A stretch of DNA of 64,000 bases. It comes from a virus. Every line of letters begins with the position of its first letter. The first letter of the stretch is position 1. The stretch spans positions 32,001-96,000 of the IMG/VR virus record IMGVR_UViG_3300045988_175036. One strand, written 5' to 3'. A program made the translations under genes and the position numbers. The notes under the pieces are model-generated. The model was not told the DNA's origin. It ran no database searches and saw only the letters and a list, made by a program, of their open reading frames with translations. Positions 11,606 through 63,171 of this stretch are shown here, piece after piece.

Positions 11606-11617
11606 AAGGAGATATAA

Positions 11618-14600
11618 ATGGCAACTACTGGTTATTTTGATGGCGCAAAGACGAGTAGGGGCTGGTATGCGCGCCTTGAGTGGTCATACACTCAAGGCAC
11701 CTCTACCACTATTACCCTTACGTTGAAAGTGTATAATGGAACTGCGCCCTCTTATAATAATTTCACAAATTCTGCTTATTACATACTAGCTGGCAATAAA
11801 ATATACAAAACTTTCAATTGGACTTCAGTTGGATGGAATACACTAGGAACGACCACAGCTGTGGTAGAGGGTTCTAAAACTTCTTATTCTGCTAGTGCGC
11901 AATGGGTAAGTGGAGTAACTTCAGCATATACTCCTGCATCACTATCTGTGAATGGAGTTATTACTTTCCCTGCCTGTACATCTAACGTAGGTGCGCCTTC
12001 TGGAGCTTATGTTAGAACTCCTTATTGGGATAAAGGCTCTATTATTCCTCCTACGACTACTAATATGACAGTGGCTTGGTGGCCAGCTTCTGACGGAAAT
12101 GGAGGCAATACTGTTTCTTCATATAAAATTTATTTTCTAATTAGTTCCTCAGGAGCAGTTCCATCTGAAAGCAATTATTCCAAAGTATTTACAACAACAG
12201 ACTTGACAAGAGAGGCTGATGGTTCAATTAGAAGGACTTTTAGCTTACCGGTATCAACTTCACAAAGAGGACAGACCATTCGTGCCGCTATTCAAGCAAT
12301 TGGTTCTTTAGGAATGAATTCTGCGCTTGTGGCTTGCTCTACAGTGATAACTGTAAATAAGAAACCTTCCGCGCCGACTGGCCCAGTGTCTCTTTTATAT
12401 AGTTCTACTTATACAGAATGTCATCCAGAAATTATTGTTGGCAATTCAAATGATGCTTCGCAAACGCCTACATTATATTATAGCTTAAATAATTCAACAA
12501 CTAAAAATCAATATACTTCTTCAACAAAACTTCCTCTTATGGCTTCTTCGCAGTCTTATAACTTTTACACCTTTGATGGACTAGAATATAGCGATAGTTT
12601 TACTTGTGTTATTACAAAAAATATAAAACCGATATTATCCAACGTAACAGTGACGATTTCCGAGACAGCAGTCACAAAAAACAGTGCTTTTTCTACAAAT
12701 TCTATATACGCGACAAAAATAAAAATTAGTGGTAATTCTTCTAAATCTAATGGTTACTTCAAAATCCAGCTAAAATATCAAAATTATGCAGCTTCGCCAA
12801 CTTTATATAATAAAGCAGTCGAAATTCAAAGAATAGATGGAGGTCTTTTGAAGAATAAAGAAATCTCTATTCTAAGCTATGTCCCTTATGGAATTAGTTA
12901 TGGAGTTTCTTTAGTTTATAATGATGGAATAGAAAATTCTTCAGAAGTATTTATTGATACCATTCAGGGGAAAAAACTTTCAATTGCACCTTATCCAACA
13001 CTTCAAAAGACATATAATCAGTTTGATTTTTCAAATATTAGTGGAACAAAAGAAAATGAATTTTGGAATAAAATTCGTTTTTGTTATACTTATGATAGCA
13101 CGTTTGTAGGAGATAAAAGCAGATTTTTCTTATCTGGCAGTGCTCTTGAAGTATTAGACGTCCAAACTGGAGCAGATAATAACAAGAACTATATATATTA
13201 TGATGCTACTTTTGCTGATACAATTCCTTCTGGCTCATATACTCTTAGTGCAGTGTTATATGACACGCGCCATCAAGATAGTTCAATTACAGATATTACA
13301 AAGGTAGAGGCAAAAGCAATTTCTTCAATTTTGCCAATTTTGACTTCTTCTACTCAGTTAAATGTATATACTGGCGGCGCAAATGATACTTTTACAATTA
13401 CTTTTACAAAGTTTTACGCAGACGGAGAAAGTCTTGAGGATTGGTCGATTACTTCTTTGAACTCAAGTGTCACTGCTTATTTTGTATATGAAGGAACTTA
13501 CTATATAATTAGTGAGCCGGTAATAGCCGCAGCTGCTTCAGAAGATTTGGTTAGAATCACTTTCAAGAAAAGCGCTGTTCCTGGAATATTTCAAAATTTT
13601 CCAAACAAAAATGGTTTATATGCGATGAATTGCGCAATAAAAATTGTAAATCTGTATGGTCGAGAATTTGATTTTATAGGAACTTCTTCGGTTGGCGTCA
13701 ATTTCAATTCTAGTCCGACAATATCTTTTGAAAAAGCTAATGTAAAATATCAATATAATAATAGTAGTTATCCTCTCAATGATAATCCTATTAGAGAAAC
13801 ATTAGTTCTTTGCTTCTCTCCCACTATCAAAGGTTATAATAACTCTCAGATAAATTTCTTTATAGATGTTTCAAGAGCAACAAGCTCCGGCCCCTGGGAT
13901 CTATTCACAAAAGGAACTTGTTTTAGAAGTGGTGAGCCATCTTATAATTCGCCTTCAGAGTTTAGTTCTTATGGGATCGGGCGTACTTCAATAAAAGAAA
14001 TTACAGATAATAATGCTTGCTGGTTCAGAGTTAGAATAAATGACGGTTATAATAATGAAGTAACGAGCTCTGTTGTAGGTCCTTTTTCTCGCGCGAAACA
14101 TATCGCTATGGATTTGACATTATCAGAATTACAGTATGCTTCAAATAAATTTACCTTCAATTATAAAATAAATGACTTAGGTCTAGCTCAAAGTTCTCTC
14201 ACGGATGGAACAATAATAATTCAACATTCAGAAGGAGCCCTTCAAGAGCAAACTTCTGGCATCGCGTGGGTTCCACATAATTTTTCTTGGGTTTCTTTTA
14301 TTTCTGGGAAATCTTCATCTGTCAGTTATTCAATGTCCGGAGATTTTGAATATGTCCGAGCGAAAATAACTACATTGTTTACGACAGATTATCCTTCAGG
14401 TCTTTCTATTACAACTAGAAAAATTTCTTATTCTAATAGTGATTTAGTTTATAACGTCACTCCAACTTTTGCTATAAGAAGGAATCAGTTGGGAATAAAT
14501 GTTGTTGAACCAACTGATTATGCTGATGGTGCTGTGGTTATTGGCGCGGCGACTGGTAAGAAAATGGTATATTTTTTGAGCGCAAACGGTATGGCTACCA

Positions 14601-16978: not shown

Positions 16979-17278
16979 ATGAAAAAATACAAAGCGCTTT
17001 ATAAGGGAATGTATGACGATTTGAAAGATTCGGAAATGATGATTGATTATGCTTTTTGTATCCGAGAAGAAGGTGACAAAACTCTCGCGGATGAAATAGC
17101 AAAGTACGCGCAATATCGTCTTCAACATTTCTCTGATTTTCACAAATTATTTGAACAAGAAGTTTCGAAAGAAAAGGAAATTTCGATGGAAACTGTTCAT
17201 AAATGTATGTGGGAAGAGGCTCATGAAGCTCTACAAGAATGGCATGATAAAATAGAAAGAAAAGTCAAATCTTATTGA
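16979..17278 (+). CDS. hypothetical protein
   Basis: RBS AAGGAGG, followed by a terminator. Confidence 0.55.
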   Translation: MKKYKALYKGMYDDLKDSEMMIDYAFCIREEGDKTLADEIAKYAQYRLQHFSDFHKLFEQEVSKEKEISMETVHKCMWEEAHEALQEWHDKIERKVKSY

Positions 17279-17282
17279 AATT

Positions 17283-17311
17283 GGGAGAGGAGCTTCGGCT
17301 CCTCTCTTTTA
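17283..17311. terminator. bidirectional terminator between convergent genes
   Basis: GGGAGAGGAGC-TTCG-GCTCCTCTC stem with a UUCG loop, followed by TTTTATT. Confidence 0.8.
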
Positions 17312-18031
17312 TTCCCATTGAACAATTTCTTTATGAGGAAAGTTTCTATCAGAAACAAATTTTCCAATTCCAATGGCGTCCGCGCAGTCATCATTTACAC
17401 TTACGTCATACCATTGTTTTACTAGATTTTTCATTGAAGCTTTTCGGTCGCTTCTTGAGCGCCCCTTTACGCCACAGTGCGCGCGCCATGTATTTGTTGG
17501 ACATATTTCAAAAGAGATACCACGCGCGAAGCACGTTTCCATCAAAATTCCTTGAAGGCGTGCGAGTGTTTGAAATGTCGTAACTCCATAATTCTGCTCA
17601 TATTGAATTCCTTCAATACCAACAAAATCAATTTCAAAAGTAGAAATAATTGACATCATCCATTCTTTTATGCGATGGTCACGCGCAATTTCATCTGTAT
17701 TTTCAGGCGCATCGAAGTATCCATACTTTATCAATTTTTTATCTTCAAAGATTGAAAAGCCACTTCGTTTTGTCGCTTGGTCAAGCCCAAGAACACGAAA
17801 ACTTCCTTTTTTCTTTGGAATTGCTTCTAATTTTATTTCTTTATATGGATTGTCTTTACAGAAAGGACATTCGCGCCGCATACGAATCTTTTTCCATGGC
17901 GCGAATACTTGATGTCCCTCTGAGCACACAAATTCCATTATAGTATCAAGATTTTTATACTCTGTAGAAATGAGTTTCCAGCCGTCTTTTTCGATTTCGG
18001 CTTTTATGTCGTCCAATTGTATCTTAGCCAT
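17309..18031 (-). CDS. RuvC-like Holliday junction resolvase with N-terminal zinc-finger region
   Basis: Motifs VLGLDQATKRSGFSIF, FVGIEGIQ and NDDCADAIGIG match the RuvC acidic residues. N-terminal CSEGH...CPFC. Confidence 0.75.
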   Translation of the reverse strand: MAKIQLDDIKAEIEKDGWKLISTEYKNLDTIMEFVCSEGHQVFAPWKKIRMRRECPFCKDNPYKEIKLEAIPKKKGSFRVLGLDQATKRSGFSIFEDKKLIKYGYFDAPENTDEIARDHRIKEWMMSIISTFEIDFVGIEGIQYEQNYGVTTFQTLARLQGILMETCFARGISFEICPTNTWRAHCGVKGRSRSDRKASMKNLVKQWYDVSVNDDCADAIGIGKFVSDRNFPHKEIVQWE

Positions 18032-18048: not shown

Positions 18049-18930
18049 TTACTTTAGGTTAGTGGAGCCAAAACCTCCATTACCTCTTTCTGTGTCATCA
18101 AGATTTTCAACTTGGAAAAGAACTGCCTTAGGGACTTCCATTAGAACAAGTTGCGCGAACTTTTCGCCTTTTCCAATTGTCATATCACTACCTCTAAGAA
18201 TTGAGGTAATGATAGGGCGGCCATTATCATCAAAATCATAAGTGATATCCTTGATAGGAGGCTCAATATTTTCAATAATTACTTGAAGCTCCCCTCTAAA
18301 TCCAGCATCAACCGTCCCAATTGAATTAGCAATTCTCATTTTTGTCTTGAGGGCGCGACCACTCTTTGGACGAATTTGAATTTCATAACCATTTGGAACA
18401 GCCACCTTGATGCCAGTTGGAATAAGCTTTGTTTCGCCGGGATGAATCACATAGTCATCCACTGCATAAACATCCATTCCACTATCATCGGGATGCGCAT
18501 ACTCAGGCATTTTTGCGTCTGGATGGCACTTTACAAAAGGAATTTGGATATAACGTTTTGCGATACCTTCTGTTTCACTAATAGCCGTATTGATGCCGCG
18601 CAGTAGCTTTTTGAGAAAATCTCGCTTTGGTGCAGTCAGGTCAGTAATTACATCAATTTCATTTACCAATTGGAGAAATTCGTCCTGGACGCTTTCTGCT
18701 GTAGAGCCAGTGGCATTGATAGACTGCGCAAGCATTAGGCGCGCGTTCGTAGTATTGAGACTACGAAGGAAACTATCCAGAATGCCAGGGGACACTAATT
18801 CAAATTGAGCATCATCCATTGATAACAGAACAGCAATAGCATCAATAGAATTTCCATCAAGACTATTTAGTTGAGAAAGCGCGTCGCGCACTTCTTCAAT
18901 AACTTTTTTAGAATTTGGTTCTACGTTCAT
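18049..18930 (-). CDS. dut: dUTPase with ~130 aa N-terminal extension
   Basis: DSGMDVYA, IRPKSGRA, GTVDAGFRGEL and the C-terminal RGNGGFGST motifs of trimeric dUTPases. Confidence 0.9.
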   Translation of the reverse strand: MNVEPNSKKVIEEVRDALSQLNSLDGNSIDAIAVLLSMDDAQFELVSPGILDSFLRSLNTTNARLMLAQSINATGSTAESVQDEFLQLVNEIDVITDLTAPKRDFLKKLLRGINTAISETEGIAKRYIQIPFVKCHPDAKMPEYAHPDDSGMDVYAVDDYVIHPGETKLIPTGIKVAVPNGYEIQIRPKSGRALKTKMRIANSIGTVDAGFRGELQVIIENIEPPIKDITYDFDDNGRPIITSILRGSDMTIGKGEKFAQLVLMEVPKAVLFQVENLDDTERGNGGFGSTNLK

Positions 18931-19151
18931 TCGGCCTCTTCACCCCACAGAGAGCAATATGTCATTTGAATTTTGCAGACCCAAATTTCATCCACAACAA
19001 TTCCCTTTTGCTTCTTCGTTTTATAAGTGTAACCGGCTGCTGTAATCTGAAAGCCTTCTTCACGAGCCTTTTCCCGGTATGCTTCAATAGTTTCTTTTGC
19101 TTCGTTTTCGTTTAGGGTAATTAGTTCTTCTGTCTTTTTATAGAGTGTCAT
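18927..19151 (-). CDS. hypothetical protein (start moved to internal ATG)
   Basis: The ATG at 19151 is preceded by GGAGG. The longer track ORF (to 19235) would overlap the upstream gene by about 100 nt. Confidence 0.5.
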   Translation of the reverse strand: MTLYKKTEELITLNENEAKETIEAYREKAREEGFQITAAGYTYKTKKQKGIVVDEIWVCKIQMTYCSLWGEEAE

Positions 19152-19986
19152 TATTTTTTGCCTCCACTTGATAGCTTGTATTTTCATTACAGTTGCACGT
19201 AGTATACCACGGATTACTAGGAGTGCCAATTTCATAAGGTTTTGGCGTATAAGGAACAGTTGCAGGAGAAGTTACAATTAGCGGACTATTAGTAATCTTG
19301 TCCTCAATTTTTGTTAGTCGTTCCATAACTTGGTCAAGCGTAATTGCGCTACTGGTTTTCTTTTCTTCCTTTTCATAGCAAATCAAATCTTTAGCATAAG
19401 GAAGTGTCTCAATCCACTTACAAAATTCTCTCCATTCCGGCAGCTTATGGCTACGACGCTGACGCCAGATATTCTTCAAACAACGGTAATTTGTGGTAAG
19501 CCGCGCTGTAAGTTCAAAGCCAGGAGGAATATTATACAAAATTTCAAGATAAAGTTCTGTTTTCTGTTTCGAGAGACTTTGCTTTGCTTCCTCGTTTTGT
19601 CCTTTTAGCGCAGAAAGTCGGTTGTATTCATTGATTTTTCCTTGGACAATATCAATGATGCGTGAATCAACATATCTATTGCATTGTTCTTTTAGGGAAA
19701 ATTTTGTGGCACAGTGCATAGTGGATTGTGAACTAACAAAAAATTTGAAGATATACCTCTCCATTTCAATCCACGCTTTATTAGAAAAGCGCAAGTCAAA
19801 ACTCACGAGAATACCTGTAAGGAATTGGTCGTGCGCGCCAACCCAATCAGCGGCGTGAGATAGGTTCTTCGCTCGTTTTAGCGCGGCTTCTACTGTCTCT
19901 TCCCAATCGGTTGTAGTTCTCAAAGGATACCCTGAAGCATGAAGACTTTCTTCTAAATCATAGACCTTTACATTTTCAACTCTCAT
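19138..19986 (-). CDS. divergent ThyX-like (flavin-dependent thymidylate synthase fold) protein
   Basis: GAHDQFLTGILVSFDL...W.EMERY...SSQSTMH and TTNYRCLKNIWRQRRSH..PEWREF parallel ThyX blocks. The recalled RHR...S.RY signature is replaced by ERY...STMH. Has an extra ~80 aa C-terminal tail. Confidence 0.45.
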   Translation of the reverse strand: MRVENVKVYDLEESLHASGYPLRTTTDWEETVEAALKRAKNLSHAADWVGAHDQFLTGILVSFDLRFSNKAWIEMERYIFKFFVSSQSTMHCATKFSLKEQCNRYVDSRIIDIVQGKINEYNRLSALKGQNEEAKQSLSKQKTELYLEILYNIPPGFELTARLTTNYRCLKNIWRQRRSHKLPEWREFCKWIETLPYAKDLICYEKEEKKTSSAITLDQVMERLTKIEDKITNSPLIVTSPATVPYTPKPYEIGTPSNPWYTTCNCNENTSYQVEAKNNDTL

Positions 19987-20506
19987 TTAGCAACTCCTCA
20001 AAAATTAAATCTTTTGGCAAAAAATTATTACATATGTATATACTAGCAAACGAAACTCCTTTTACTATCTTCGTATAATCTTCATCTTGATAAAAATTTA
20101 TTCTTTTATCAAAGATAAGGGCTTGTTTATTTTGTAAATAGGGAAAACGTTTTTGTCCTTGTAAGGTAGGCAGCGGAAAAAGCATTGCATAAGGTTTTTG
20201 GAGTTCTTCTAGCCTTTTTAAGATATCGTCTTTACAAGAGAATGGAGGATTAGAAATGATAATATCATATTTATCAGGAGAATAGTAAAAAAAGTTTTTC
20301 CCCAAGTCAATATGGGAAAATATTACTTTATTCCCATTCTGTAAAAAAATTTGAACATATTTACTATTCTCCTTATCAAAAGGACACCAAATGATATCCT
20401 CTTTTGAGACATATTTTAATAAGGGGGTAATAGCGTTAGGTGGGGTATAGTATTCATCAGAAGCTTTATCCGTTTTTGCTGTTAAATAACCTTTATTTTG
20501 TCCCAT
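19976..20506 (-). CDS. DNA N6-adenine methyltransferase (small phage Dam-like)
   Basis: DEYYTPP and IISNPPFS motifs. Confidence 0.7.
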   Translation of the reverse strand: MGQNKGYLTAKTDKASDEYYTPPNAITPLLKYVSKEDIIWCPFDKENSKYVQIFLQNGNKVIFSHIDLGKNFFYYSPDKYDIIISNPPFSCKDDILKRLEELQKPYAMLFPLPTLQGQKRFPYLQNKQALIFDKRINFYQDEDYTKIVKGVSFASIYICNNFLPKDLIFEELLNES

Positions 20507-47238: not shown

Positions 47239-48294
47239 TTGGAGCTAAGCAAAACTCAAGAAGAAATTTTGGCGTCATCTGCTTCTGTTGTATTTGTTCA
47301 ATCTTGTGCGAGTAGCGGGAAAACGAGATTATTGACTGAGAAAATTCGCCAATCTATCTCGCGTGCGAAAAAGCTGGTAGCTTTTACTTTTACAAACATG
47401 GCGGCAGCAGAAATTCGTAGTAGATTGAATGTTGAAAATAGTGATGTAATTTGGATCGGCACTATCCATTCTTACTGCGCGAGATGCTTGTTGCGCGCGG
47501 GAATTACAGAAGCAGGAAAGTATTTGAATAATGAAAATTTTGATGGTCTTTTTGACCTTGCGCGAAGCCATCCAAGGGCTTTTCCTTCTTTAGACATTTG
47601 CCTACTGGATGAAGCGCAGGATAGTAATGAAGATCAATTCAATTTTATTTTTTCAATTATCAAAAGTGCGGAATACTTTGTAGTTTATGATGAGCGGCAG
47701 TCTATTTATCGATGGAATGGAAGTAGACCAGATCTTTTGAAATATTGGGCTTACGAACTAAACGCTTCTATTTATTCAATGGATGAAAATTATCGTAATG
47801 GTAGCGATATTCTTGATTTTGCGCGGGATATTATTAGAAAAAATAAAATGAGTGATTTATCTATTCCGATGCGTGGAGTGCGTGGGAGGGTCATTGAAGT
47901 TCCTTTTTCTATCAAGTATCTTGTTGATGAAATCAAGTCCACTTCTAATTATGGCGATTGGATGGTGCTCGCGCGCACGAATGCGGAAGTAGATAATATT
48001 TTTGATAAGTTGACTGATGCTGGAATTCCATGCGATACATTCAAGCAAGGTGACCTGTCAAAAGATGAGCTAAGCGAAAAAATGAAAGCAGATACTGTGA
48101 AGGTTCTTACCATTCACTCAAGCAAAGGACTTGAGACACGCTATGTAGCTGTATATGATAGCCGGATGTGGAACGAAGAAGAAGTCTGTATTTCTTATGT
48201 TGCGGCGACTCGCGCGCGTGATCGCCTAATTTGGTTTACTAAACCAGTTGTAAAAAAGAAACCTCGAAGAAACTCAATGACGAGTTGGGAGTAA
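47239..48294 (+). CDS. UvrD/Rep-like superfamily 1 DNA helicase (compact)
   Basis: CASSGKTRLL (Walker A), LLDEAQD, TIHSSKGLE and YVAATRARDRL. Confidence 0.85.
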   Translation: MELSKTQEEILASSASVVFVQSCASSGKTRLLTEKIRQSISRAKKLVAFTFTNMAAAEIRSRLNVENSDVIWIGTIHSYCARCLLRAGITEAGKYLNNENFDGLFDLARSHPRAFPSLDICLLDEAQDSNEDQFNFIFSIIKSAEYFVVYDERQSIYRWNGSRPDLLKYWAYELNASIYSMDENYRNGSDILDFARDIIRKNKMSDLSIPMRGVRGRVIEVPFSIKYLVDEIKSTSNYGDWMVLARTNAEVDNIFDKLTDAGIPCDTFKQGDLSKDELSEKMKADTVKVLTIHSSKGLETRYVAVYDSRMWNEEEVCISYVAATRARDRLIWFTKPVVKKKPRRNSMTSWE

Positions 48295-48296
48295 AT

Positions 48297-49223
48297 ATGG
48301 AAAAAATATCAGCATTACTTTTTATGGTTTCTGCTGTTGTTTTTCTAATTCTTTTCATTGGACAAAAAAAGAAAATAAAGCAAAAAAATTATGAAATTGA
48401 GCAACTAAAAGAAAAGAATAAAAAAGATGCTGAAAATTTTTGGAAAGACTTGGATGTGGCAGAACAAAAAGTTTATGAAGATAATCACAAAAAGAGAAAT
48501 GAGCGACTTCAGCAATTGAATGAAATTATTGCTAAGCAAGAAACTTTTCAAGTGAATAGAAAATCTTCAATTGAAGAAGAAATCCAAGAACTCCGTTTAC
48601 AAAAGCTTCAGCAGCTTCAAAATCAGCTTATCATAGATAAAGCGCAAATTGACCAAGATAAAAGAGATTATGAATTAGAACTTGAAAAGGTGAAGTGCGA
48701 ACTTTCTCAATTTCAAGCAAAGCGCCAAGCAGTGAATGAAGCGATTCGGCGCGAGCGTGAAGTTGAGGAAAAAGAGGATTTCTATCGCATTTGTCTTTTG
48801 CCAGAAGAAATTGAAGATATAGAAGTCTTGAAAAGTTTGGCACCAAGGCTTCGGCATCGTGAAATAGTTCCAAAACTAATGTGGGATACAATGGTTTCGC
48901 GTGCGACGAAGGAAATGATAAAGCGAGTAACAGGTGGCCGCGCAGTTGGTGGTATTTACAAAATTACCTATATTCCAACTGGTGAATCTTATATTGGGAA
49001 AACGACTGATTTTGGAACACGTTGGCAATCACACGTCCAAACCGCGCTTGGTATGGAGAAAGTTGCTCGTTCAACTCTTCATGTACATATGGCTTCTCAT
49101 GGAATTCAAAACTATACTTTTGAAATTTTGGAAGAGGTTGCGCGCGAAAAGCAAACAGAAAGAGAAAAATTTTATATTGAGCTTTATGGGACGCAAAAAC
49201 AGTTGAATATGAGGATTGGTTGA
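48297..49223 (+). CDS. GIY-YIG nuclease domain protein with N-terminal TM helix and long coiled coil
   Basis: ISALLFMVSAVVFLILFIG (TM helix), a ~170 aa E/K/Q-rich coiled coil, and a C-terminal GGIYKITYIPTGESYIGKT...REKFYIELYG. Confidence 0.65.
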   Translation: MEKISALLFMVSAVVFLILFIGQKKKIKQKNYEIEQLKEKNKKDAENFWKDLDVAEQKVYEDNHKKRNERLQQLNEIIAKQETFQVNRKSSIEEEIQELRLQKLQQLQNQLIIDKAQIDQDKRDYELELEKVKCELSQFQAKRQAVNEAIRREREVEEKEDFYRICLLPEEIEDIEVLKSLAPRLRHREIVPKLMWDTMVSRATKEMIKRVTGGRAVGGIYKITYIPTGESYIGKTTDFGTRWQSHVQTALGMEKVARSTLHVHMASHGIQNYTFEILEEVAREKQTEREKFYIELYGTQKQLNMRIG

Positions 49224-50039: not shown

Positions 50040-51131
50040 ATGAGTTTTATAATTGATGGCGTTGATTTTGAAAATCTTGAAGCTGAGAAGTATTGGAGTT
50101 TTACTTCTTCCTATACGCCTGAAAGAAAGAAACGAGAAGCAATCAACATGGTTTATTCTGGAGATTATCTTGGGGCGCGGAAGATGGACGGAGCGTATTA
50201 TCGAGCTATAATCTCTGAGGATGGCGAACTTCGTCTACAAGGCCGATCTAAGTCCGTAAAGGGAGGATACCTAAACAAAATTGATTGGGTTCCTCATTTG
50301 AAGTCTTTCTTTGAGGCTCTTCCGCGAGGAACCTGTTTACTTGGCGAAGTCTACTTCCCAAAGAATGAAGGTTCTTATAACACAACTACAATTATGGGCT
50401 GTCTTGCGCCTAAAGCAGTCGCGCGCCAAGAAACAGGAGAAAAACTTCACTATTATGTTTTTGATATTTGGGCTTATGACGGAGAAAGCTATTTGAATAA
50501 GACAGCAGAAGAGCGTTTTACAATGATTCAGAATCTTCCCAAGTCAGATTATGTTGAGTTTGCTCAATACTATGAAGGCGCTGAGTTGTGGCAGAAATAT
50601 CAAGAAATTTTGGCTGAAGGTGGAGAAGGTGTTGTTATTACTCGACGTGATTCTAAACCACAACCCGGTAAACGCAGCGTGCGGAAGACTCTTAAACTGA
50701 AGAAAGAACTTCAAGAAACACTTGATGTCTTTATCTATGGTGGAAATCCTCCGACCCGTCTTTATTCTGGAAAAGAAATCGAAAACTGGCAGTATTGGCA
50801 AAATACTGTTACGCATGAACTTATGTGCGGCGACCATTATAAGGAATATTTTGAGGGTGATACAATTGAACCTGTCACAAAAATGTATTATATGCGTGGT
50901 GCTGGTAGTCTAAAGATTGGCGCGTATAAGGATGGAAAACCGGTTCAGATTGGTAGTTTGAGTGGTTTAGATGATGAGATTTTGTTGAATTGGAAGGACT
51001 ATATTGGGAAGGTCGCAGAGGTTACTTGTATGGAGGTTCTGCCTACAGGAGGATTGCGCCATAGTCGTTTCTTAGGTTGGCGCGTCGATAAGGTTCCTCG
51101 CGATTGCCAGTGGGAGACAATTTTTGGTTGA
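50040..51131 (+). CDS. ATP-dependent DNA ligase
   Basis: Adenylation motif ARKMDGAYYR (KxDG), plus LLGEVYF, EGVVITR and LKLKK. Confidence 0.85.
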   Translation: MSFIIDGVDFENLEAEKYWSFTSSYTPERKKREAINMVYSGDYLGARKMDGAYYRAIISEDGELRLQGRSKSVKGGYLNKIDWVPHLKSFFEALPRGTCLLGEVYFPKNEGSYNTTTIMGCLAPKAVARQETGEKLHYYVFDIWAYDGESYLNKTAEERFTMIQNLPKSDYVEFAQYYEGAELWQKYQEILAEGGEGVVITRRDSKPQPGKRSVRKTLKLKKELQETLDVFIYGGNPPTRLYSGKEIENWQYWQNTVTHELMCGDHYKEYFEGDTIEPVTKMYYMRGAGSLKIGAYKDGKPVQIGSLSGLDDEILLNWKDYIGKVAEVTCMEVLPTGGLRHSRFLGWRVDKVPRDCQWETIFG

Positions 51132-52355: not shown

Positions 52356-52991
52356 TTATTTTCCTCCATTTTTCCAAGTATATCCACCAGCCGTTAGACG
52401 TTTTCCACGGCAGACTTCGCTAATATGATTATACCAAATCCCAGTAGCTAATTGTGCGTCTTTATATGAAGTATATGAAGCTATAAAATTTCCTTGTAAG
52501 TCATACTGCTCTACAATATGCTTTTGTTTTGCAGTGCGAATAGCATAGCCTCTTTTCTTAATATCTTCTTCTGAAAGTTTTAATTCTTGTTTTATATAAA
52601 AAGAAATTGTTTCTATAGTTGAATTGGTTAATTTTCGAATATCTCTAATACAATATCCGTTTTGATATAAATCAATTATAGTTGAAATTTCTTTTTGGGT
52701 TAGGAAGCGAGTTCCTTCGCCGCCTCTAGTTGAATTATAACCTTCTTCATAAGAATTATAAAAATCAATCCAATAAATTTCTCGTTCATTGATAATATCA
52801 TTAGAACATTCTTCAATTGATTCAATAGAAAAGTTTTTTACTCCATATTTTCTAAAGGCCCGATAGATTTTGAAATCTTTATCTTTAATACTATTAAGAT
52901 GTTCTTTCCATCGTTCTTCAATAGTTCTGGTTGTTTTTCCAACGTAAACTTTATCATTTATAGTATTTGTAATTTTATAAATAAATCCCAT
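52356..52991 (-). CDS. free-standing GIY-YIG homing endonuclease (I-TevI/Seg-like)
   Basis: GFIYKITNTINDKVYVGKT, EREIYWI and GYNSTRGGEG. C-terminal DNA-binding-like CRGKRLTAGGYTW. Confidence 0.85.
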   Translation of the reverse strand: MGFIYKITNTINDKVYVGKTTRTIEERWKEHLNSIKDKDFKIYRAFRKYGVKNFSIESIEECSNDIINEREIYWIDFYNSYEEGYNSTRGGEGTRFLTQKEISTIIDLYQNGYCIRDIRKLTNSTIETISFYIKQELKLSEEDIKKRGYAIRTAKQKHIVEQYDLQGNFIASYTSYKDAQLATGIWYNHISEVCRGKRLTAGGYTWKNGGK

Positions 52992-53468: not shown

Positions 53469-53839
53469 TGGAGAAGTATTTTTATCTTGAGGAAAGCCCC
53501 TATCTTCCTACTTACTGTATGCTTTATACCAATATTGAGAAGATGCCTTTTCCAAATGGAATTAGAGGCTCTTATTCAATGATGGCTGCGCGGGTTCTTG
53601 GATTAGATTATGCAGACTTCTTGAGGTTTGCGCGCGACATCCTTGAAGCAAAGATTATGGGTAAAGGTGAATGCTATCCTCGTGCATATTTTAGAAAAAC
53701 TCCTGAAGTCCTTCAGATGGTAAAGCTATTGAATAAGCGGATGGAATTGATTATGGATATGCGCGCGAAGCCATACAATTTAGAAAAAAGAATTGATGGG
53801 TCAATCATAAAGGAGAATTTTGATGTATCTAACAGTTGA
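53468..53839 (+). CDS. hypothetical protein
   Basis: ATG 53468 follows AAGGAG and overlaps the upstream stop. Confidence 0.5.
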   Translation: MEKYFYLEESPYLPTYCMLYTNIEKMPFPNGIRGSYSMMAARVLGLDYADFLRFARDILEAKIMGKGECYPRAYFRKTPEVLQMVKLLNKRMELIMDMRAKPYNLEKRIDGSIIKENFDVSNS

Positions 53840-54737
53840 GTTGCTACGAAAATATGGTGCGCATCAAGATAAAATCCAAGAATTTGTTGGAAGATTTCCA
53901 AATGGTGTTGAAGCACTAGACTTTCTTGAAGAAATTGGCCCTGAAGCGATTGCTGGTAATTATAGTCCATGGCTTGAGGCATTATACTGGGGTTACCGAA
54001 TGCTACCCTGGACCACCAAAGAAAAAGAGAAATACTGTGAAGTTTTGAATATTGATAGTTCTTCTAGCGTCTATGAAAGTTATGATGTAGAAGAAAGTGA
54101 AAAAGTTATTCATTCTGATCACATTTATTTGAGCGGAAACATTGATAACTGTAGTAATATTAGAAATAGTAATTACGTTGCTTCTAGTGCTACAGTTGAA
54201 GGAAGTGACGGTGTCCTAAAGTCAGAATATATTGTGAATAGTAGTCTAGTTGATACTGGAATGGACATTCAAAGTTCAAAAGAAATTTATAAAGCATCAC
54301 ATGTGAAGAAAAGTCAGAAGTGCGCGCGAGTCGATAGTATTGAGAATTGCGTCGGAATTTTCAGTTCTTCTGGATGTGAAGAGGTCTATTACTCTTCTTT
54401 TATGAAGAATTGTCATCATTGTCTTTTCTGTGATGATATTGAGGATGCTTCTTTTAGAATCTTCAACCAACCAGTGCCTGAGAAGGATTTCTTCGTAATT
54501 CTTTCGATGGTTGAGAGCTATTTTGATAACAAGCTTGAACCTTTGATTGAAACTACAGTAAATGACGAATTTTATTTTGGCCTTGATTGGCATGTTTCGA
54601 CGCACTTTACAAAGATTTACAGAAGCCTGTCGCAGGAGGTTTTCAATCAACTTTATAGACTACCTGGTTATAATGACTGGCTGATGTATCAGATTACATT
54701 GAATACTCTGAGTTTTCGAGATTTGAAAAATAGCTAA
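53823..54737 (+). CDS. hypothetical protein (Cys/Ser-rich repeat region)
   Basis: ATG 53823 follows AAGGAG. Repetitive S/N/V-rich middle section with CHHCLFC. Confidence 0.55.
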   Translation: MYLTVELLRKYGAHQDKIQEFVGRFPNGVEALDFLEEIGPEAIAGNYSPWLEALYWGYRMLPWTTKEKEKYCEVLNIDSSSSVYESYDVEESEKVIHSDHIYLSGNIDNCSNIRNSNYVASSATVEGSDGVLKSEYIVNSSLVDTGMDIQSSKEIYKASHVKKSQKCARVDSIENCVGIFSSSGCEEVYYSSFMKNCHHCLFCDDIEDASFRIFNQPVPEKDFFVILSMVESYFDNKLEPLIETTVNDEFYFGLDWHVSTHFTKIYRSLSQEVFNQLYRLPGYNDWLMYQITLNTLSFRDLKNS

Positions 54738-54920: not shown

Positions 54921-55544
54921 GCTATTTGGCGCACGACAGAAACTTACCGTGAATGTCTGAAGTGGCCTCAGTTGGGAAGGCTTACCAGCTTTATAAAAAC
55001 CGAGCAATCAAGACAAAGTATTAGCTACACTTTGAGGAAGCAAAGAGGTGGGCGGGAGTCGGCTCTCCCGTAGCTAGAAACCGATTACAGGGTTAAGCGC
55101 AAGACGCTTAGGCCAAGCTATGATGTCATATTTCCGGGGCAATTTCGGTAGTATGACGGAGCTTTTGTCAAGGGTTAGGAGATTTCCACAGATTGCCTAG
55201 GGGTCTACCTCGTAGGAGACTACCGAAAGAAAATCTCCATCTTTATCCTGCCTTAGCACAACGGTAGTGCAACCGGTTTATGCCCGGCATACGGCTCCAG
55301 ATTAGGGCGCGATCTCGGTTCGAATCCGAGGGGCAGGACCAAAGGTATCCAAACTACCTTAATCGTTTGGTGAGGACTCAAGTTACTAAAGTTAGGTCAG
55401 CTTGACATCCAACAGAGACGACCTACACAGGTGAGACAGGTGAGAATGACGGCTTAGTCCTTTCTTGAATAAACAGAACCTGACCCGTTTTGGCGCCAAG
55501 GGTGAACGCTGCTTGAAGGTAAAGAAAGGCAATAAATTTTATAT
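54921..55544 (+). ncRNA. large structured RNA candidate A (~620 nt, contains an internal cloverleaf)
   Basis: No ORF in any frame and visibly higher GC than its flanks. Helices: TAGCTAC/GTAGCTA, CGGGAG/CTCCCG, TAAGCG/CGCTTA, GGAGATTT (55178-85)/AAATCTCC (55231-38), AGGACT/AGTCCT. Promoter at 54723. Ends at tRNA-Asn. Confidence 0.55.
55247..55341 (+). tRNA. tRNA-like cloverleaf with 25 nt extra arm, anticodon-loop UUUAUGC (UAU), CCA encoded
   Basis: Acceptor CCTGCCT/GGGCAGG, D arm GCAC-AACGGTA-GTGC, T arm CTCGG-TTCGAAT-CCGAG, then A-CCA. The anticodon stem has only 4 bp plus an A-C mismatch. The long variable region folds poorly. Confidence 0.45.
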
Positions 55545-56387: not shown

Positions 56388-56463
56388 CCTCTATTGGTGT
56401 AATGGTAGCACACTTCCCGTCAAGGAAGAGGGGTCGGTTCGATTCGATATCCTGCATAGAGGA
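56388..56463 (+). tRNA. aberrant tRNA-Asp-like cloverleaf (GUC in a 6 or 8 nt loop, irregular T arm)
   Basis: Acceptor CCTCTAT/ATAGAGG, D arm GTGT-AATGGTA-GCAC, CTTCC-CGTCAA-GGAAG. The T region GTCG-GTTCGATT-CGAT has 7 extra nt before the acceptor 3' strand. Confidence 0.35.
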
Positions 56464-56650: not shown

Positions 56651-56686
56651 GCGGGTGTAGTATAATGGTTATTATGTCTGCCTTCC

Positions 56687-57150
56687 TTCTAAACTTAATG
56701 CGTTAGATATATATGGAGCAATTATCAACTCAATTTAAAGGCGATGTGACTGAACTTTTAGTTAGTGCATATTTACTAAAATTAGGTTATGTAGTATCTA
56801 AACCTTTAACCCAAGATAGTAAATATGATTTAATTGTAGATATTAACCATAAGTTAATTCGTATTCAGGTTAAAACTGCAAGACTAAATGATCGGACCAT
56901 TGGCAAAAGTATTAAGTTTAATTGTAGAAGTACCACAAACAATGTAAGAGAATGCAAACAGCGATATTATTCGCCAGAAGATGTAGATTATTTTGCAACA
57001 TATTGGGATAATGTAGTATATTTAATCCCAGTTACTGAATGTAGTGCTGAGAAAATTTTATGGATAGATAAGCCTACATATAAAAACAGTTGTTTTGCAA
57101 ATGATTATCTGGCAGAGGAGGTATTACAACGCATTTAAGCATTGGAAGGG
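56687..57150 (+). mobile_element. 464 nt endonuclease-carrying intervening sequence in the tRNA-Gly anticodon loop
   Basis: Inserted after C36. Only 26 nt upstream and 12 nt downstream are outside the ORF and its stop codon. The ends pair: CCTTCC (56681-86) with GGAAGG (57144-49), and CTTAATGCGTT (56694-704) with AACGCATTTAAG (57128-39). Confidence 0.7.
56713..57138 (+). CDS. PD-(D/E)XK homing endonuclease (I-Ssp6803I-like)
   Basis: GDVTELLVSAYLLKLGYVVSKPLTQDSKYDLIVD...IRIQVKT matches the E...G..V..P...YDLIVD...QVK pattern of the tRNA-intron endonuclease family (from memory). Located inside a tRNA anticodon loop. Confidence 0.65.
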   Translation: MEQLSTQFKGDVTELLVSAYLLKLGYVVSKPLTQDSKYDLIVDINHKLIRIQVKTARLNDRTIGKSIKFNCRSTTNNVRECKQRYYSPEDVDYFATYWDNVVYLIPVTECSAEKILWIDKPTYKNSCFANDYLAEEVLQRI

Positions 57151-57273
57151 AAGCAGAAGATGGGGCTTCGATTGCCCTCACTCGCTCCACCGCCCCATGG
57201 GAAGTTTGCCTCCAATAAGTCTCATGACCACTACTAGATTGCACTAGTTGACTGAATAAAGGTGGTTTTATAT

Positions 57274-57852: not shown

Positions 57853-58248
57853 AGTTGGTAAGCAGTCCCAAGCCTGCATAAACACAGAGGGAGACTAATA
57901 GCGGTATTACAGTGGCCAATGTAATATCCAAAATTTCGAGACAGGCAAGTCTTCAGGCAGTAGATGTCTGATAAAACAACGACGGCGAAGGAGTCGCGAC
58001 CTTCGGAGGAGCCGAGATAAACCTACGGGGAACCGCCATCGGAGAAAAGGAATTTATTAGTCAAATCAGTTTCGTGGTTCTGGGACTCAAAACCACCTCG
58101 CGCAGTTCTTACGGCGCAATATAAATAGGATGGGCGCTATCTGACATGGCGTGACGTTCAGAAGTTTCGATGCGTGGGCTTACCTATAAAACTCATGCTG
58201 GGTCTTTGGAGCCTTTTACCTCCTGTGTGAAACAAAAGGCTCGTATAT
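57853..58248 (+). ncRNA. large structured RNA candidate D (~400 nt)
   Basis: ORF-free and GC-enriched. Contains the GTGGTT/AACCAC hairpin. Bounded by the Ile-like tRNA and tRNA-Leu, in the transcription unit of the 57659 promoter. Confidence 0.45.
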
Positions 58249-58334: not shown

Positions 58335-59282
58335 GAAATTCGTGTCCCGCTAAGCTCTATAATGATTGTGGCGAGGCTAAGGCGTTGGCAGATAAGGGGC
58401 AACCGCACGAATTAGAATATTGCGCAGGTCGTCTAACAGTAGGACGCCAGACTCATTATCTGGAGACAACGTGCAACTCGTTCGTGCGCAACCATTCGCT
58501 TTGGCGAAACTCTCGTAGAGGATGGATTTTACGGTTCAACTACCACCGGCTTCCGAGCCCGACCGCTATGGCTGACAACGAAGATATGTGGCTTTGTCAT
58601 TTGCCGAGAGTATAATAAATAAAAACGAAAGCAAACCGTTTATTTGTTCCTTGAAAATAAAATATCTTAGAACTCGATGACAAACATTCTGTGACTAGGA
58701 ATGTCGAGGCGTTTTGAAAAGGGCGGCAGACAACGAACAAGGATACTTGTGGATACTGACCGGTGCGCGTGACGTGAGTTGCGTGCCAGAGAGGATGGAC
58801 TCCCAACCCTAAGAGGCGGCATCGAGATTAACGCGAGTAAAGGTAGGACGCGCGTCGCTGGCGTAATAGAGGCTTTCAAGATAATTGAGAGCTGAATCCT
58901 AATCTCCCTTAGTTGGTGACTGTGGGTAAATCATTTGATTAGGAAATAACCACAAGCCAGTTTGTTGTGAAGCGAAGAAATTCGTGTATAAGACGTGTAT
59001 GTGGCCTCTGAGTAGCCAAAGACAAGCACAATAATGATTATTGATAATAAAAATCAAGAACTTGCTGAATGGCTGGTGAAAGGTTCTGGTAATCAATCCA
59101 GAAGAGACTACGCGCACGAAGGTGCGGCTATGGGAAGTATGCGCGGGACGCTGCGTATGCTCAGCCCCATGGTGCTCTTGACTGAATATACTTGAAGTTA
59201 GTTTTCGGTAGGTTGAAGAACCCATAGATATTTTATTTTCAGGGAACAAATCCCTTTTGACGGAAAGGAACGTCAAAATTTT
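58335..59282 (+). ncRNA. large structured RNA candidate E (~950 nt, possibly two RNAs)
   Basis: Only short overlapping ORFs without an RBS, and about 50 percent GC by eye. Helices: AATTCGTG (58337-44)/CACGAATT (58406-13), TTCGC-TTTG-GCGAA, CGCAC-GAAG-GTGCG. Ends with hairpins AGGGA/TCCCT and TTGACG/CGTCAA plus a T-run. Confidence 0.5.
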
Positions 59283-61488: not shown

Positions 61489-63171
61489 ATGGCATATCAA
61501 TCTGTCTATTGGAAAAAATATGATAGGTCAAAGATGTTTTCTCAAATGGATGTCTTTTATAATTATCTTGGAGAAGACCCCGCGCGGCCTTCACTGGCAG
61601 TTTTGAAAGGAATGGCAGAAGACAGTTTCAATCGCCACTTGAATCAGATAAGAGAAATCTCAAAAAATGTTGAACCTTACAGGCGTATTGCTGAGACAGA
61701 AAAGGAAAAGGAATTAGCTCTTTTGCGCGAGGTATTTGGGCAAGACCTTCATATAAATCTTCAAGACCAAAATGATGTAAAGTCGTTGATTGAGGCATTG
61801 AACAGTGTTTTGAATATAAAAGATGTATATAATAGGAATGTTCGAACTTTGGAGCTTTCTAAGGGTGGTATGAAAAGCGTTGTATCTTTCTTCCCAACCT
61901 ATTTTCTCCAAGTTTGGAATGAACAGTGGGAAGACATCTATTTAGCGACTTGTGACATGTTCGCGCGAGGAAAAATTACATTGGAAGATGCCTTGAAAAA
62001 AGAGGTCAATAAAAGAATTGATAATATGACAATTGAAGCAATAGAGAGAATGTTGTCCGCGCGAGCTGAGATGAAGGATATGCGCGAAGACGATAAATAT
62101 AATAAAGCTTACCAAGAATTACTTGACGCAATTAGGGCTCTTCCAAGGTATAGAAATGAAATCATCGAAAGAATTCGTTCAATTTATCAGCTAGACAAGC
62201 TAAGCGACAGTATTACAGAGCAAATCAAAGGGGAAGGGCATATAACAAAGAAACAAATAGAAAAGAAACTAAAAAATTCTGCTAAAAAACCAGTTGAAAT
62301 TCAATCAGCTTCGCGCGGAGGATTGACTTTAGAGGCTATTGAGAAAATGGTTTTCAATATGATTGGAGACAAAATAGAAGCCAATGGTGGAATGGCTAGA
62401 ACCATTCATACTGGTAAGATTGGTAATATGAAAGCAGATAATATTATGACAATCGGTCTTGCTCCTTCCATCATTGATGAATGGATTGATGACATTATGG
62501 AGATTTCTGGTTCATCGCGTGCAGATAATATAGAAAGAATTCGACGTCTTGGAGAATTGACACAAAATGCAGATAAAGGTTTTATAATCTATTCTAGTGA
62601 TAAAAATTATACTTTGAATCAAAGGTTTCGTGAGCAATTTGGTTTTTCTGCCGGATCGGCACTGTCCGCTCAATCATTCTATGATGTCACGCGCAATGTA
62701 AATAAGAACGCGCGCACTTTTACTGGTTTATTGGTCAATACAATTGGCGGAGCTATAATGGATACCGAAGGAACACGTGACCGCTTAGCAGAGATTATTG
62801 CAGAGGACATTGCTGTAATGCTTTTTGATGATTATCAGACAATTGGTGATTTTAGAGGGAAAGTAGGAGCTAGTGCTATTCATATAATGAATTTAGGTAA
62901 TATAATGATACCACTTTCCGTCTTTTTGACGATGTTTGCTAATGCAGTCGAGCAAGCGGAGAGTGAACCTTCTGATTTTGTGAAGGTCGCAATTATGACA
63001 CCTGAAATTGAATTCAAAACATATTCAGAGCAACTGGAATGGCAGGCTAGGAATGAGGCGACTTCTAGTGAAGCTTGGAGCTTCCAGCGGGAGCAAACTT
63101 TACAAAAGATTCGTATTTCGGTTCGTTTCTTCCGAGAATTCCGTTCTTTCATCACCACGCTCGGTCAATAA
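61489..63171 (+). CDS. hypothetical protein (560 aa)
   Basis: Long ORF with RBS GGAGTGAG. No motif recognised. Confidence 0.6.
   Translation: MAYQSVYWKKYDRSKMFSQMDVFYNYLGEDPARPSLAVLKGMAEDSFNRHLNQIREISKNVEPYRRIAETEKEKELALLREVFGQDLHINLQDQNDVKSLIEALNSVLNIKDVYNRNVRTLELSKGGMKSVVSFFPTYFLQVWNEQWEDIYLATCDMFARGKITLEDALKKEVNKRIDNMTIEAIERMLSARAEMKDMREDDKYNKAYQELLDAIRALPRYRNEIIERIRSIYQLDKLSDSITEQIKGEGHITKKQIEKKLKNSAKKPVEIQSASRGGLTLEAIEKMVFNMIGDKIEANGGMARTIHTGKIGNMKADNIMTIGLAPSIIDEWIDDIMEISGSSRADNIERIRRLGELTQNADKGFIIYSSDKNYTLNQRFREQFGFSAGSALSAQSFYDVTRNVNKNARTFTGLLVNTIGGAIMDTEGTRDRLAEIIAEDIAVMLFDDYQTIGDFRGKVGASAIHIMNLGNIMIPLSVFLTMFANAVEQAESEPSDFVKVAIMTPEIEFKTYSEQLEWQARNEATSSEAWSFQREQTLQKIRISVRFFREFRSFITTLGQ

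Follow-up and report, generated by a model that had tools for sequence, protein, structure and literature searches.

The stretch analysed here, called the window below, is 64 kb of the IMG/VR virus record IMGVR_UViG_3300045988_175036, and it carries a tRNA-Gly(UCC) gene that is split directly after its anticodon by an insert made up almost entirely of an endonuclease open reading frame (ORF). Coordinates are positions in the window, tRNA nucleotides follow the standard numbering, and i1 and iN denote the first and the last intron nucleotide. Homologous or intron-less loci and contigs gathered for comparison are numbered L001 to L144, L138 being the cultured Enterococcus phage EFP01. The 5' exon (56651–56686, + strand) holds tRNA nt 1–36 and ends with the complete anticodon U34 C35 C36, the mobile insert (56687–57150, +) is 464 nt long and lies between nt 36 and 37 without target-site duplication, and the 3' exon (57151–57189, +) supplies nt 37–73 and CCA. 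Joining of the exons gives a 75-nt tRNA-Gly(UCC) with G1:C72, C2:G71, G3:C70, U73, CCA and C35 C36 in its sequence, and ARAGORN classified this spliced candidate as tRNA-Gly(tcc).

Uninterrupted tRNA-Gly genes were found in 13 IMG/VR phage contigs, with 71–75 of 75 positions identical to the predicted join. The contigs L116, L117, L119 and L123, all intron-less, are 95–97% identical to the window over ~1.4 kb of flank, and one intron-less allele was itself called as tRNA-Gly(tcc) by ARAGORN. The 5' exon is identical to the 5' part of the intron-less alleles L116–L128, the 3' exon was delimited by its sequence and by intron-less alleles, and the limits of the insert come from its presence or absence relative to the contigs 95–97% identical in the flanks. 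Because the intron-less alleles match the predicted join, the junction C36|A37 is fixed by DNA evidence and goes beyond the geometry of the loop. Such a clean insertion between C36 and A37, with no duplicated bases, reads as the signature of homing. The first-pass annotation, made from the letters of the window, had recognised the two halves as a tRNA-Gly(UCC) whose 5' half already contains the full anticodon, and had noted a C, not a U, before the 5' junction. The sequence bears out both statements, and the comparison with intron-less alleles of related phages, which that annotation had proposed as a check, confirmed the junction with 75/75 identity to the join. In its default mode, ARAGORN missed the split tRNA-Gly gene in the window; in its intron mode, it picked a junction with U at position -1 and G as the last intron base (omega-G) and called tRNA-Pro(UGG). 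The same product had been foreseen by the first-pass annotation for that alternative, and the junction itself is refuted by the intron-less alleles.

The ORF occupies 56713–57138 (+) and encodes 141 amino acids plus the stop codon, leaving 26 nt upstream and 12 nt downstream, i.e., 38 nt in total, as the non-coding part of the insert, as had been counted before. Its product matches the Pfam family PF11645 (PDDEXK_5) with an E value of 1.3e-23 and 84 bits (cutoff 26) and, by sequence, the PDB entry 2OST (I-Ssp6803I) with an E value of 8e-10. The AlphaFold model of the product (pLDDT 88.6) matched the fold of 2OST over the full length with a TM score of 0.79. The next fold matches were Holliday-junction resolvases, and the match to the archaeal splicing endonuclease EndA was local and non-significant (E 0.5). 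In an alignment of 26 diverse homologs, D39 and Q52-x-K54 are invariant, and neither an invariant His nor an EndA-type triad was found. In PHROGs the ORF family is PHROG 5018, which is listed without function. On these matches the ORF is predicted to encode an I-Ssp6803I-family homing endonuclease of the PD-(D/E)XK type whose catalytic motif is intact. The same assignment, to the endonuclease of the Synechocystis tRNA-fMet intron, had earlier been proposed from the residue pattern.

Protein-guided searches yielded 115 loci, 109 of them with complete flanks. A locus was regarded as solved when removal of the candidate insert left a tRNA valid for ARAGORN, with the anticodon ending at the junction. 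At first pass 89 of the 109 loci with complete flanks were solved, and 12 more followed once recoded stops were read through, as most of the unsolved loci had failed solely from an in-frame TAG or TGA in the ORF. More than 100 phage loci from gut and rumen share the architecture, as does the cultured phage EFP01. The host tRNAs belong to at least 13 species: Gly(UCC), Gly(GCC), Thr(UGU), Thr(AGU), Ser(GCU), Ser(UGA), Asn(GUU), Lys(UUU), Pro(UGG/GGG), Ala(UGC), Gln(UUG), Trp(CCA), Asp(GUC) and an initiator-like Met(CAU). All solved loci have the insert at 36|37; in tRNAs that allow a U32–A38 pair, the helix described below can also slide by one position, and the junction was set there by tRNA geometry and analogy with the unambiguous loci. 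The insert length ranged from 439 to 659 nt (median 466), and the total non-coding sequence per insert had a median of 37 nt and a maximum of 48 nt over 58 distinct loci. A motif search for ORF-less mini versions, with a spacing below 200 nt, found none in the 576 kb of fetched loci. A single array can hold as many as four split tRNAs beside 15–30 intact ones. An element 95% identical to that of the window sits in a clearly different tRNA-Gly allele (L039), which points to frequent transfer.

A nucleotide search of cultured phages returned tRNA-sized matches alone, and EFP01 (NC_047796) came from the protein-level search. This phage carries a 37%-identical ORF within a tRNA-Asn(GUU) gene at ~105,230–105,770, with the junctions ...ACUGGCUGUU|UUUUCUGACC...GUAGAAAGC|AACCAGU. 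Among the 30 distinct Schiekvirus phages matched, EFP01 is the only one with the insert; the other 29 show two flanking matches, 158 nt apart in total, and mostly have an annotated tRNA-Asn there. In the public EFP01 record the split tRNA-Asn(GUU) is unannotated, and the start of gp109 is placed 44 nt downstream of the likely ATG.

A different insert was observed at L039, where a second tRNA (757–1434), directly upstream of the split tRNA-Gly, contains a 602-nt insert that is nearly all HNH ORF (178 aa), with ~65 nt of non-coding sequence. The ends of this insert pair (AUGUAAUU/AAUUACAU), and the anticodon arm CUUGA/UCAAG gives Lys-UUU or Trp-CCA, depending on the junction chosen. It may represent a second family of core-less tRNA inserts. 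A pattern scan for its intron-less allele gave an unrelated tRNA only.

In the predicted precursor RNA of the window, the two insert ends form a helix with one another and with the anticodon, and this helix is referred to as the rod. The 5' strand of its first helix comprises tRNA nt 33–36 and intron nt 1–6 (UUCC|UUCUAA; 56683–56692, +), and the 3' strand is UUGGAAGGG|A (57142–57151, +), in which the anticodon is matched by GGG (57148–57150) and U33 by A37; both strands are supported by the minimum-free-energy fold and by covariation in the alignment of homologs described below (alignment A2). The second helix, likewise supported by fold and covariation, is formed by CUUAAUGCGUU (56694–56704, +) and AACGCAUUUAAG (57128–57139, +); the latter strand, which was also identified from the sequence, holds the ORF stop codon (57136–57138), and the helix measures 11 bp with one bulged U in the window. 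Between the two helices lies a 1x2 internal loop, 56693 against 57140–57141, which is embedded in two conserved motifs. The 5' motif, YAAAC-UU (56690–56696, +; A at 56693 unpaired), corresponds to near-invariant columns of A2 and recurs in Gly-, Thr-, Ser- and Asn-hosted copies. The 3' motif, AAGCAUUG (57137–57144, +; C-A at 57140–57141 unpaired), is conserved across homologs. The whole window precursor folds better than 100 of 100 shuffles (z = -2.9, minimum free energy).

All solved loci follow a common plan. The anticodon stem 27–31:39–43 continues coaxially via 32·38 and U33:A37, nt 34–36 pair with the last three intron bases (the anti-anticodon), and 6–7 intron–intron pairs follow; a small conserved internal loop (5'-CAA[A]CU / 5'-AG[CA]UUG) then leads to a second helix of 6–11 bp that contains the stop codon. 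The rod is thus ~26–30 bp long including the anticodon stem, the ORF forms its terminal loop, and both exon–intron junctions lie inside it, on opposite strands and 3 bp apart. The sequence of the second helix varies among homologs while its pairing persists (e.g., CUCAGU/ACUGAG).

The rod was evaluated on 52 distinct mini-precursors, in which the real ends were joined via an artificial GAAA linker (A2). Pairing was seen in 92.3% of cells, versus 61.9% in shuffles (0 of 500 as high) and 29–45% with the partner slid. Both sides vary in 21 of the 22 rod pairs; as the five anticodon-stem pairs had been pre-selected to pair, the new information lies in the other 17. The pairs 35:iN-1, 36:iN-2 and i1:iN-3 were formed in 52/52 and the pair 34:iN in 42/52. 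The pair at the 5' junction, 36:iN-2, is U:A (34) or C:G (18) and never a wobble, and U33, A37 and A38 are invariant among homologs. The anti-anticodon follows the host tRNA: GGG or GGA for UCC, ACA or AUA for UGU, AGC for GCU and GUU, AUG for CAU, UGG for CCA, UCA for UGA and GCA for UGC. Since some of these contain G–U pairs (GGG for UCC, AUA for UGU, AGC for GUU), the complementarity is selected in RNA and not in DNA. The GCAUUG motif is independent of the reading frame, because it is kept where the stop codon is a TGA inside GCATTGA (L012, L033, L093 and L103). Around a free-standing homolog between two tRNA genes of Vibrio phage River4, no rod was found.

The first-pass annotation had proposed that the insert ends pair with each other and with the anticodon loop through CCTTCC/GGAAGG plus an 11-bp helix. 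The pairing stands, both in the fold and in the 52 homologs; the CCTTCC/GGAAGG register does not, as it would break C31:G39, and the coaxial register is favoured by fold and covariation. The description of the ends as terminal inverted repeats was also given up, since the repeat extends into the exon and follows the anticodon by G–U pairs, which makes it an RNA-level feature. Altogether, the element is recurrent, precisely bounded and under RNA-level selection.

The insert has neither a group I ribozyme core nor a bulge-helix-bulge (BHB) motif. Over 58 distinct loci the last intron base is A in 29, U in 12, C in 11 and G in 6 (G in the window) and varies to pair with nt 34, while nt 36, i.e., position -1, is U in 38, C in 19 and G in one (C in the window). 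The 5' exon end pairs with the 3' end of the intron, not with a 5'-proximal guide, and no complement of CUUCC was found in the first 26 intron nt (56687–56712), as the first-pass annotation had stated of an internal guide. Its further remark that the sequence outside the ORF is far too short for a group I core also holds, with 38 nt against ~200 nt in the Synechocystis intron. Across 79 distinct ORFs, the third-position entropy at conserved residues equals background codon usage (ratios mostly ~0.6–1.4), and codons below 0.4 of the background entropy were limited to 3–4 and an isolated 118, with no run of constraint. A hidden core overlapping the ORF, which had been listed earlier as the second of three possibilities, is disfavoured, because such a core would leave conserved nucleotides and none are seen at synonymous sites, and because the omega and -1 bases vary. 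With its short non-coding part, without omega-G as a rule of the family, without U(-1) in the window and without synonymous constraint, the insert is not an ordinary group I intron, in line with the initial impression. Rfam scans at E ≤ 10, of 5 kb and of the insert alone, gave no match to a group I intron or self-cleaving ribozyme; this absence was given no weight, since the Intron_gpI model was equally silent on the control, a probable classical tRNA-Leu(UAA) intron.

This control belongs to a pair of inserts observed in tRNA-Leu(UAA) genes at L002 1732–2168 and L069 1454–2275. Both are inserted at U34|A35 with U(-1) and omega-G and share their 3' end; they measure 349 nt without an ORF (L002) and 736 nt with an HNH ORF (L069), and show no Intron_gpI match at E ≤ 10. 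They are probably classical group I introns.

A BHB motif at 36|37 was considered and rejected, since it needs pairing of nt 30 with nt 38, which mis-registers the anticodon stem, and since the junctions sit only 3 bp from one another in a continuous helix; in a manual attempt, two 3-nt bulges 4 bp apart could not be drawn without breaking that stem. No EndA-type endonuclease turned up among the genes of the window and the neighbourhoods examined. The rod does have an end helix of at least ~20 bp, as in RNase III-type processing. A plain RNase III cut as the sole event was nevertheless rejected, as the junctions are 3 bp apart and the 2-bp stagger of that enzyme would leave a 6- or 8-nt anticodon loop.

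The split tRNAs appear to be kept functional, as far as their sequences tell. In 11 loci the ORF contains an in-frame TAG where homologs have Gln, including the catalytic Q52 (L023, L043, L049, L050, L054, L061, L091, L102/L032, L104, L111 and L114), and in two loci a TGA where homologs have Trp (L080 and L099). The exons give a valid tRNA in 12 of these 13 recoded loci. The position of the TAG and TGA codons at the Gln and Trp sites of homologs means that these endonuclease genes evolved in place within stop-codon-recoded phages. The anticodons of the split tRNAs are missing from the intact tRNAs beside them, and in L142, L136 and L144 the sole Gly tRNA is a split one. In L001, whose ORF is 99% identical, the exons differ by G19->A and C56->U, so that the tertiary pair 19:56 is preserved as A:U. 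As a separate observation, CUA-anticodon tRNAs are present in the arrays of L136, L142 and L144.

The covarying rod, exons that can fold into a cloverleaf, up to four split tRNAs per array and the ligases described below are best fitted by a protein-dependent route, the first possibility offered by the first-pass annotation; its BHB-like version fails on the continuous helix. We put the probability that proteins excise the insert and ligate the tRNA at roughly one in two. The broader proposal is slightly more tentative: the elements would form the first ribozyme-free, protein-spliced intron class in Bacteria and their viruses, with the rod marking the splice sites, a duplex-cutting nuclease, possibly the element's own endonuclease, making the cuts, and RtcB or an Rnl-type ligase sealing them. 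At the DNA level, the ORF product would cut intron-less tRNA genes at the anticodon, and repair would copy the element in by homing. At the RNA level, the insert would be removed by proteins and would not remove itself. An endonuclease, either the element's own or a duplex-specific RNase of host or phage, would read the rod and cut both strands at the junctions, leaving 3-nt 3' overhangs; the tRNA halves would be held together by the folded tRNA body, and RtcB, or an Rnl-type ligase with end-healing enzymes, would reseal the anticodon loop. The 3-bp offset is not independent evidence for any enzyme, because it follows automatically from insertion at 36|37 in a 7-nt loop and from helix stacking.

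Candidate sealing enzymes are encoded by several of the phages concerned. EFP01 encodes RtcB (gp162; 201.7 bits) and two metallophosphoesterases; in the two-thirds of its record that were read, no further RNA ligase is annotated. L142 has an Rnl1-family ligase, L143 a PF09414 RNA ligase and a metallophosphoesterase, and L134 a kinase, Thg1 and a phosphoesterase. The L134 genes lie in a cluster (18330–20429) of AAA_33 kinase, Thg1-like, metallophosphoesterase and PIN/PhoH genes that adjoins a ROOL RNA (17142–17732) and resembles a tRNA end-repair cassette.

Several points weigh against protein-dependent splicing. No RNA ligase was found in the 64-kb window, where the DNA ligase at 50040–51131 is the only ligase, and none in ~10 kb downstream of it; Rnl1- and Rnl2-type queries had no match in window-like contigs. 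A search for candidate RNases among the uncharacterised proteins at 53820–54737 and 61489–63171 gave a weak HEPN_AbiU2 match only (E 0.019) and no PDB relatives. We know of no enzyme that cuts an RNA duplex with a 3-bp stagger; that of RNase III is 2 nt. PD-(D/E)XK DNases and RNase III yield 5'-P/3'-OH ends, which RtcB cannot use, and enzymes that form cyclic phosphates normally need unpaired nucleotides, whereas the 5' junction sits between strictly conserved Watson–Crick pairs. RNA-repair genes are common in tRNA-array phages irrespective of such inserts. The exons of the window and of EFP01 are identical to intron-less alleles, which indicates a recent insertion, and intact exons could result from recurrent, recent homing. 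The host tRNAs are decayed or chimeric in L067, L079 and L143 (10001–10432): in L067 the anticodon and T arm are partly deleted, and in the chimeric cases the two strands of the anticodon stem no longer match. At L130 (3675–4056), otherwise 95–99% identical around the site, the tRNA-Gly segment has been swapped for ~380 bp with a 90-aa ORF. As the whole segment is replaced there, L130 was rejected as an intron-less allele, and for the same reason the tRNA-Gly is dispensable for some relatives.

These last observations also suit the explanation that survives best beside protein splicing, although we consider it rather unlikely, namely that the insert always stays in the transcript, leaving the tRNA inactive, and that homing drive maintains the endonuclease gene. 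The rod could then serve, for example, as an RNase III site or an end-protecting stem through which the endonuclease mRNA is freed from the polycistronic tRNA transcript or made more stable, the anticodon stem being borrowed for the helix. Neither a ribozyme nor a known bacterial splicing enzyme suits the structure, and the spread of the element is sporadic and looks recent, as in the single carrier among the Schiekvirus phages, whose exons equal intron-less alleles, and in the near-identical element of L039, in a different tRNA-Gly allele; the decayed host tRNAs and the replaced segment of L130 fit as well. Yet a stem that served the element alone would need no exon bases, whereas the three anticodon-facing bases have been adjusted anew to each host tRNA, and all 52 homologs retain the pairs on either side of the 5' junction. 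The free-standing homolog has no such stem, and related free-standing endonuclease genes in tRNA clusters lie between tRNA genes, not inside them. Inactivation would also mean that up to four of ~20 tRNAs per array are dead, including the sole Gly tRNA of several arrays, and it sits poorly with the recoded endonuclease genes that still interrupt intact tRNAs in 12 of 13 cases.

A specific version of protein-dependent splicing has the element's own PD-(D/E)XK endonuclease cut the RNA rod, both strands 3 bp apart, with an Rnl-type ligase sealing the 5'-P/3'-OH nick; this we hold to be distinctly unlikely. The accompanying idea that the rod is an RNA copy of the left half and central triplet of the DNA target, with nt 27–36 facing nt 43–37 and the anti-anticodon, is equally doubtful. 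Of all components, only the endonuclease accompanies the element without exception into phages with widely differing hosts. The junctions enclose exactly the three anticodon base pairs, U33, A37 and A38 are invariant, and the conserved rod motif suggests sequence-specific recognition. I-Ssp6803I leaves 3-nt 3' overhangs on DNA, and EndA has a fold derived from PD-(D/E)XK. Against this, cleavage of A-form RNA duplexes is not known from metal-dependent PD-(D/E)XK DNases, the rod's intron strand is unlike the right half of the DNA target, the homologs show no invariant His and no EndA-type triad, the EndA fold match is local at E 0.5, and the 3-bp offset is automatic, as explained above. The ends produced would moreover be unsuited to RtcB, the one RNA ligase annotated in the part of the EFP01 record that was read.

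Self-splicing, either by a reduced group I-like core overlapping the ORF or by a small ribozyme of a new kind formed by the rod, is very improbable: the rod-type insert after CAU (36|37) in the tRNA-fMet-like gene of L143 occupies what we take to be the position of the Synechocystis tRNA-fMet group I intron, the rod is reminiscent of a P1 helix in that a duplex encloses the 5' junction, and the silence of the Rfam group I model means little given that it missed the probable classical intron of L002 as well, but only 38 nt are non-coding, the 79 ORFs show no run of synonymous constraint, omega-G, the U–G pair and an internal guide near the 5' end are absent, no Rfam ribozyme or group I model matched at E ≤ 10, and the junctions lie in a regular helix, which is unfavourable to in-line attack. 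What weight remains beside protein splicing, no splicing and a cryptic ribozyme goes to something else.

By descent, the closest relative of the element is the Synechocystis group I intron; by logic, the closest are the archaeal BHB introns with homing-endonuclease genes. The intron in tRNA-fMet of Synechocystis PCC 6803 is 655 nt long, contains a 150-aa ORF and a core of ~200 nt, and self-splices (PMC1995217). Its endonuclease belongs to the same family (PF11645; 2OST is the best match by both sequence and fold), its target is likewise the anticodon loop of a tRNA, and an insert after CAU is also found in a phage tRNA-fMet-like gene, there of the rod type. Unlike it, the phage insert has 38 nt of non-coding sequence and no omega-G, U–G pair, guide or constrained RNA within the ORF. 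The archaeal BHB introns, processed by EndA and RtcB, share with the phage insert the endonuclease gene, the lack of a ribozyme, an intron–exon helix, the pairing of intron and anticodon and, presumably, protein cleavage followed by ligation. They differ in that the phage junctions are separated by 3 bp of an uninterrupted helix, the phage insert sits at 36|37 and not at 37|38, and the ORF is of the PD-(D/E)XK type instead of LAGLIDADG. The setting here is also bacterial, as seen from EFP01, metagenome bins named as Bacillota and bacterial-type replication and lysis genes; to our knowledge, no EndA occurs in such a setting.

Other systems share single steps with the proposed route. Phage anticodon-loop repair (T4 Pnkp and Rnl1; RtcB) similarly seals a break in the anticodon loop of a folded tRNA, but it deals with one-site damage by host nucleases, whereas two programmed cuts removing ~460 nt are proposed here, and the link between the ligases and the insert remains a putative one. 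In 23S rRNA intervening sequences, a long stem of the insert ends also acts as the processing signal and is cut at its base by a duplex-specific nuclease, RNase III. There, in contrast, the stagger is 2 nt instead of 3, and the fragments stay unligated and the rRNA works in pieces, while a tRNA with a nicked anticodon loop would not be expected to decode. In the SOS splicing of DNA transposons from animal mRNAs, paired inverted ends trigger excision and RTCB ligates the product, with no need for the usual splicing machinery (PMC12779559). That process is eukaryotic, acts on mRNA, involves AKAP17A and CAAP1, protects the host and is imprecise, unlike the phage element, which specifies a precise junction. 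Free-standing PDDEXK_5 genes of phage tRNA clusters share the protein family and the tRNA-array neighbourhood; they lie between tRNAs (tRNA-Asp and tRNA-Pro in River4) and have no rod, whereas the window gene interrupts an anticodon loop and its ends pair with exon sequence. A 2026 paper on gut jumbo phages counted 80 PDDEXK_5 genes as stand-alone and did not mention tRNAs (PMC12880540). The literature searched contained no account of tRNA genes from bacteria or phages with an endonuclease insert that lacks a ribozyme.

Among endonuclease-bearing tRNA introns the element is a new variant, which shares the endonuclease family of its group I relative and the presumed logic of the BHB introns. 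The tRNA introns of bacteria and phages are described in textbooks as group I ribozymes, and tRNA splicing that depends on proteins is ascribed to archaea and eukaryotes. The recurrent rod and anticodon pairing without a ribozyme suggest a previously undescribed, protein-dependent intron removal from tRNAs of bacterial viruses, and ribozyme-less tRNA inserts as widespread as these, at more than 100 loci, in at least 13 tRNA species and with up to four per array, would challenge the textbook view. If the inserts are spliced, they would represent a new intron class and an unrecognised splicing route in bacteria or phages, and phage RtcB and Rnl ligases would gain a routine, programmed substrate. 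If they are not, selfish genes would routinely knock out phage tRNAs while evolving exon-matched RNA stems, which would also be new. The elements are relevant to the proposal that protein-spliced introns arose from group I introns through loss of the core. Split tRNA genes of this kind escape the usual programs for tRNA detection and annotation: ARAGORN overlooks or mis-calls them, and in the EFP01 record the site lacks a tRNA-Asn. The cultured phage EFP01 makes the question of splicing directly testable.

The window belongs to a phage of ~117–119 kb with genes for a siphovirus-type tail, DNA polymerase III alpha, gyrase, DnaB, ribonucleotide reductase, DNA ligase, ClpP and PhoH, and its close relatives were sampled from human gut and rumen. 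Homing-endonuclease genes abound in the region, with two GIY-YIG endonuclease genes at 48285–49223 (+) and 52356–52991 (-), one of them with NUMOD1. The tRNA array contains ROOL and drum RNAs according to Rfam. The full-length ROOL RNA (58649–59242, +; 285.9 bits, E 1e-65) lies within the array ~1.5 kb downstream of the split tRNA; ROOL is also present in L129 and L134, and absent within 10 kb of the split tRNAs in L142–L144. The drum RNA (55115–55242, +; 56.9 bits, above the gathering score) ends 4 nt upstream of the tRNA at 55247 and was also detected in L136 and L129. No consistent co-occurrence of the inserts with ROOL or drum RNAs was found among these loci.

Several minor features were noted in the arrays. 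The 95-nt tRNA at 55247–55341 (+) was called as Ile(UAU), and its variable arm, at ~22 nt, is atypical of tRNA-Ile. A weak tRNA-like match at 56393–56450 (+), possibly starting from ~56360, is sub-threshold with 22.5 bits; its loop CGUCAAG gives a UCA anticodon with G at 33, a candidate 5' strand of the acceptor (GCAGGAU) lies ~17 nt away from the D arm, and it may be a degenerate or oddly interrupted tRNA. A twister-P3-like match at 57855–57931 (+), 2 nt past tRNA-Ile(GAU), scored 22.8 bits against a gathering score of 39.9 (E 0.32) and is probably due to chance. The tRNA at 58422–58490 (+), unreported by ARAGORN, scored 43.7 bits in Rfam. At L002, a RAGATH-33 RNA (2182–2310, 126.8 bits) adjoins the tRNA-Leu gene, and at L142 a tmRNA gene (11612–11959, 112.7 bits) lies within an array of ~32 tRNA genes.

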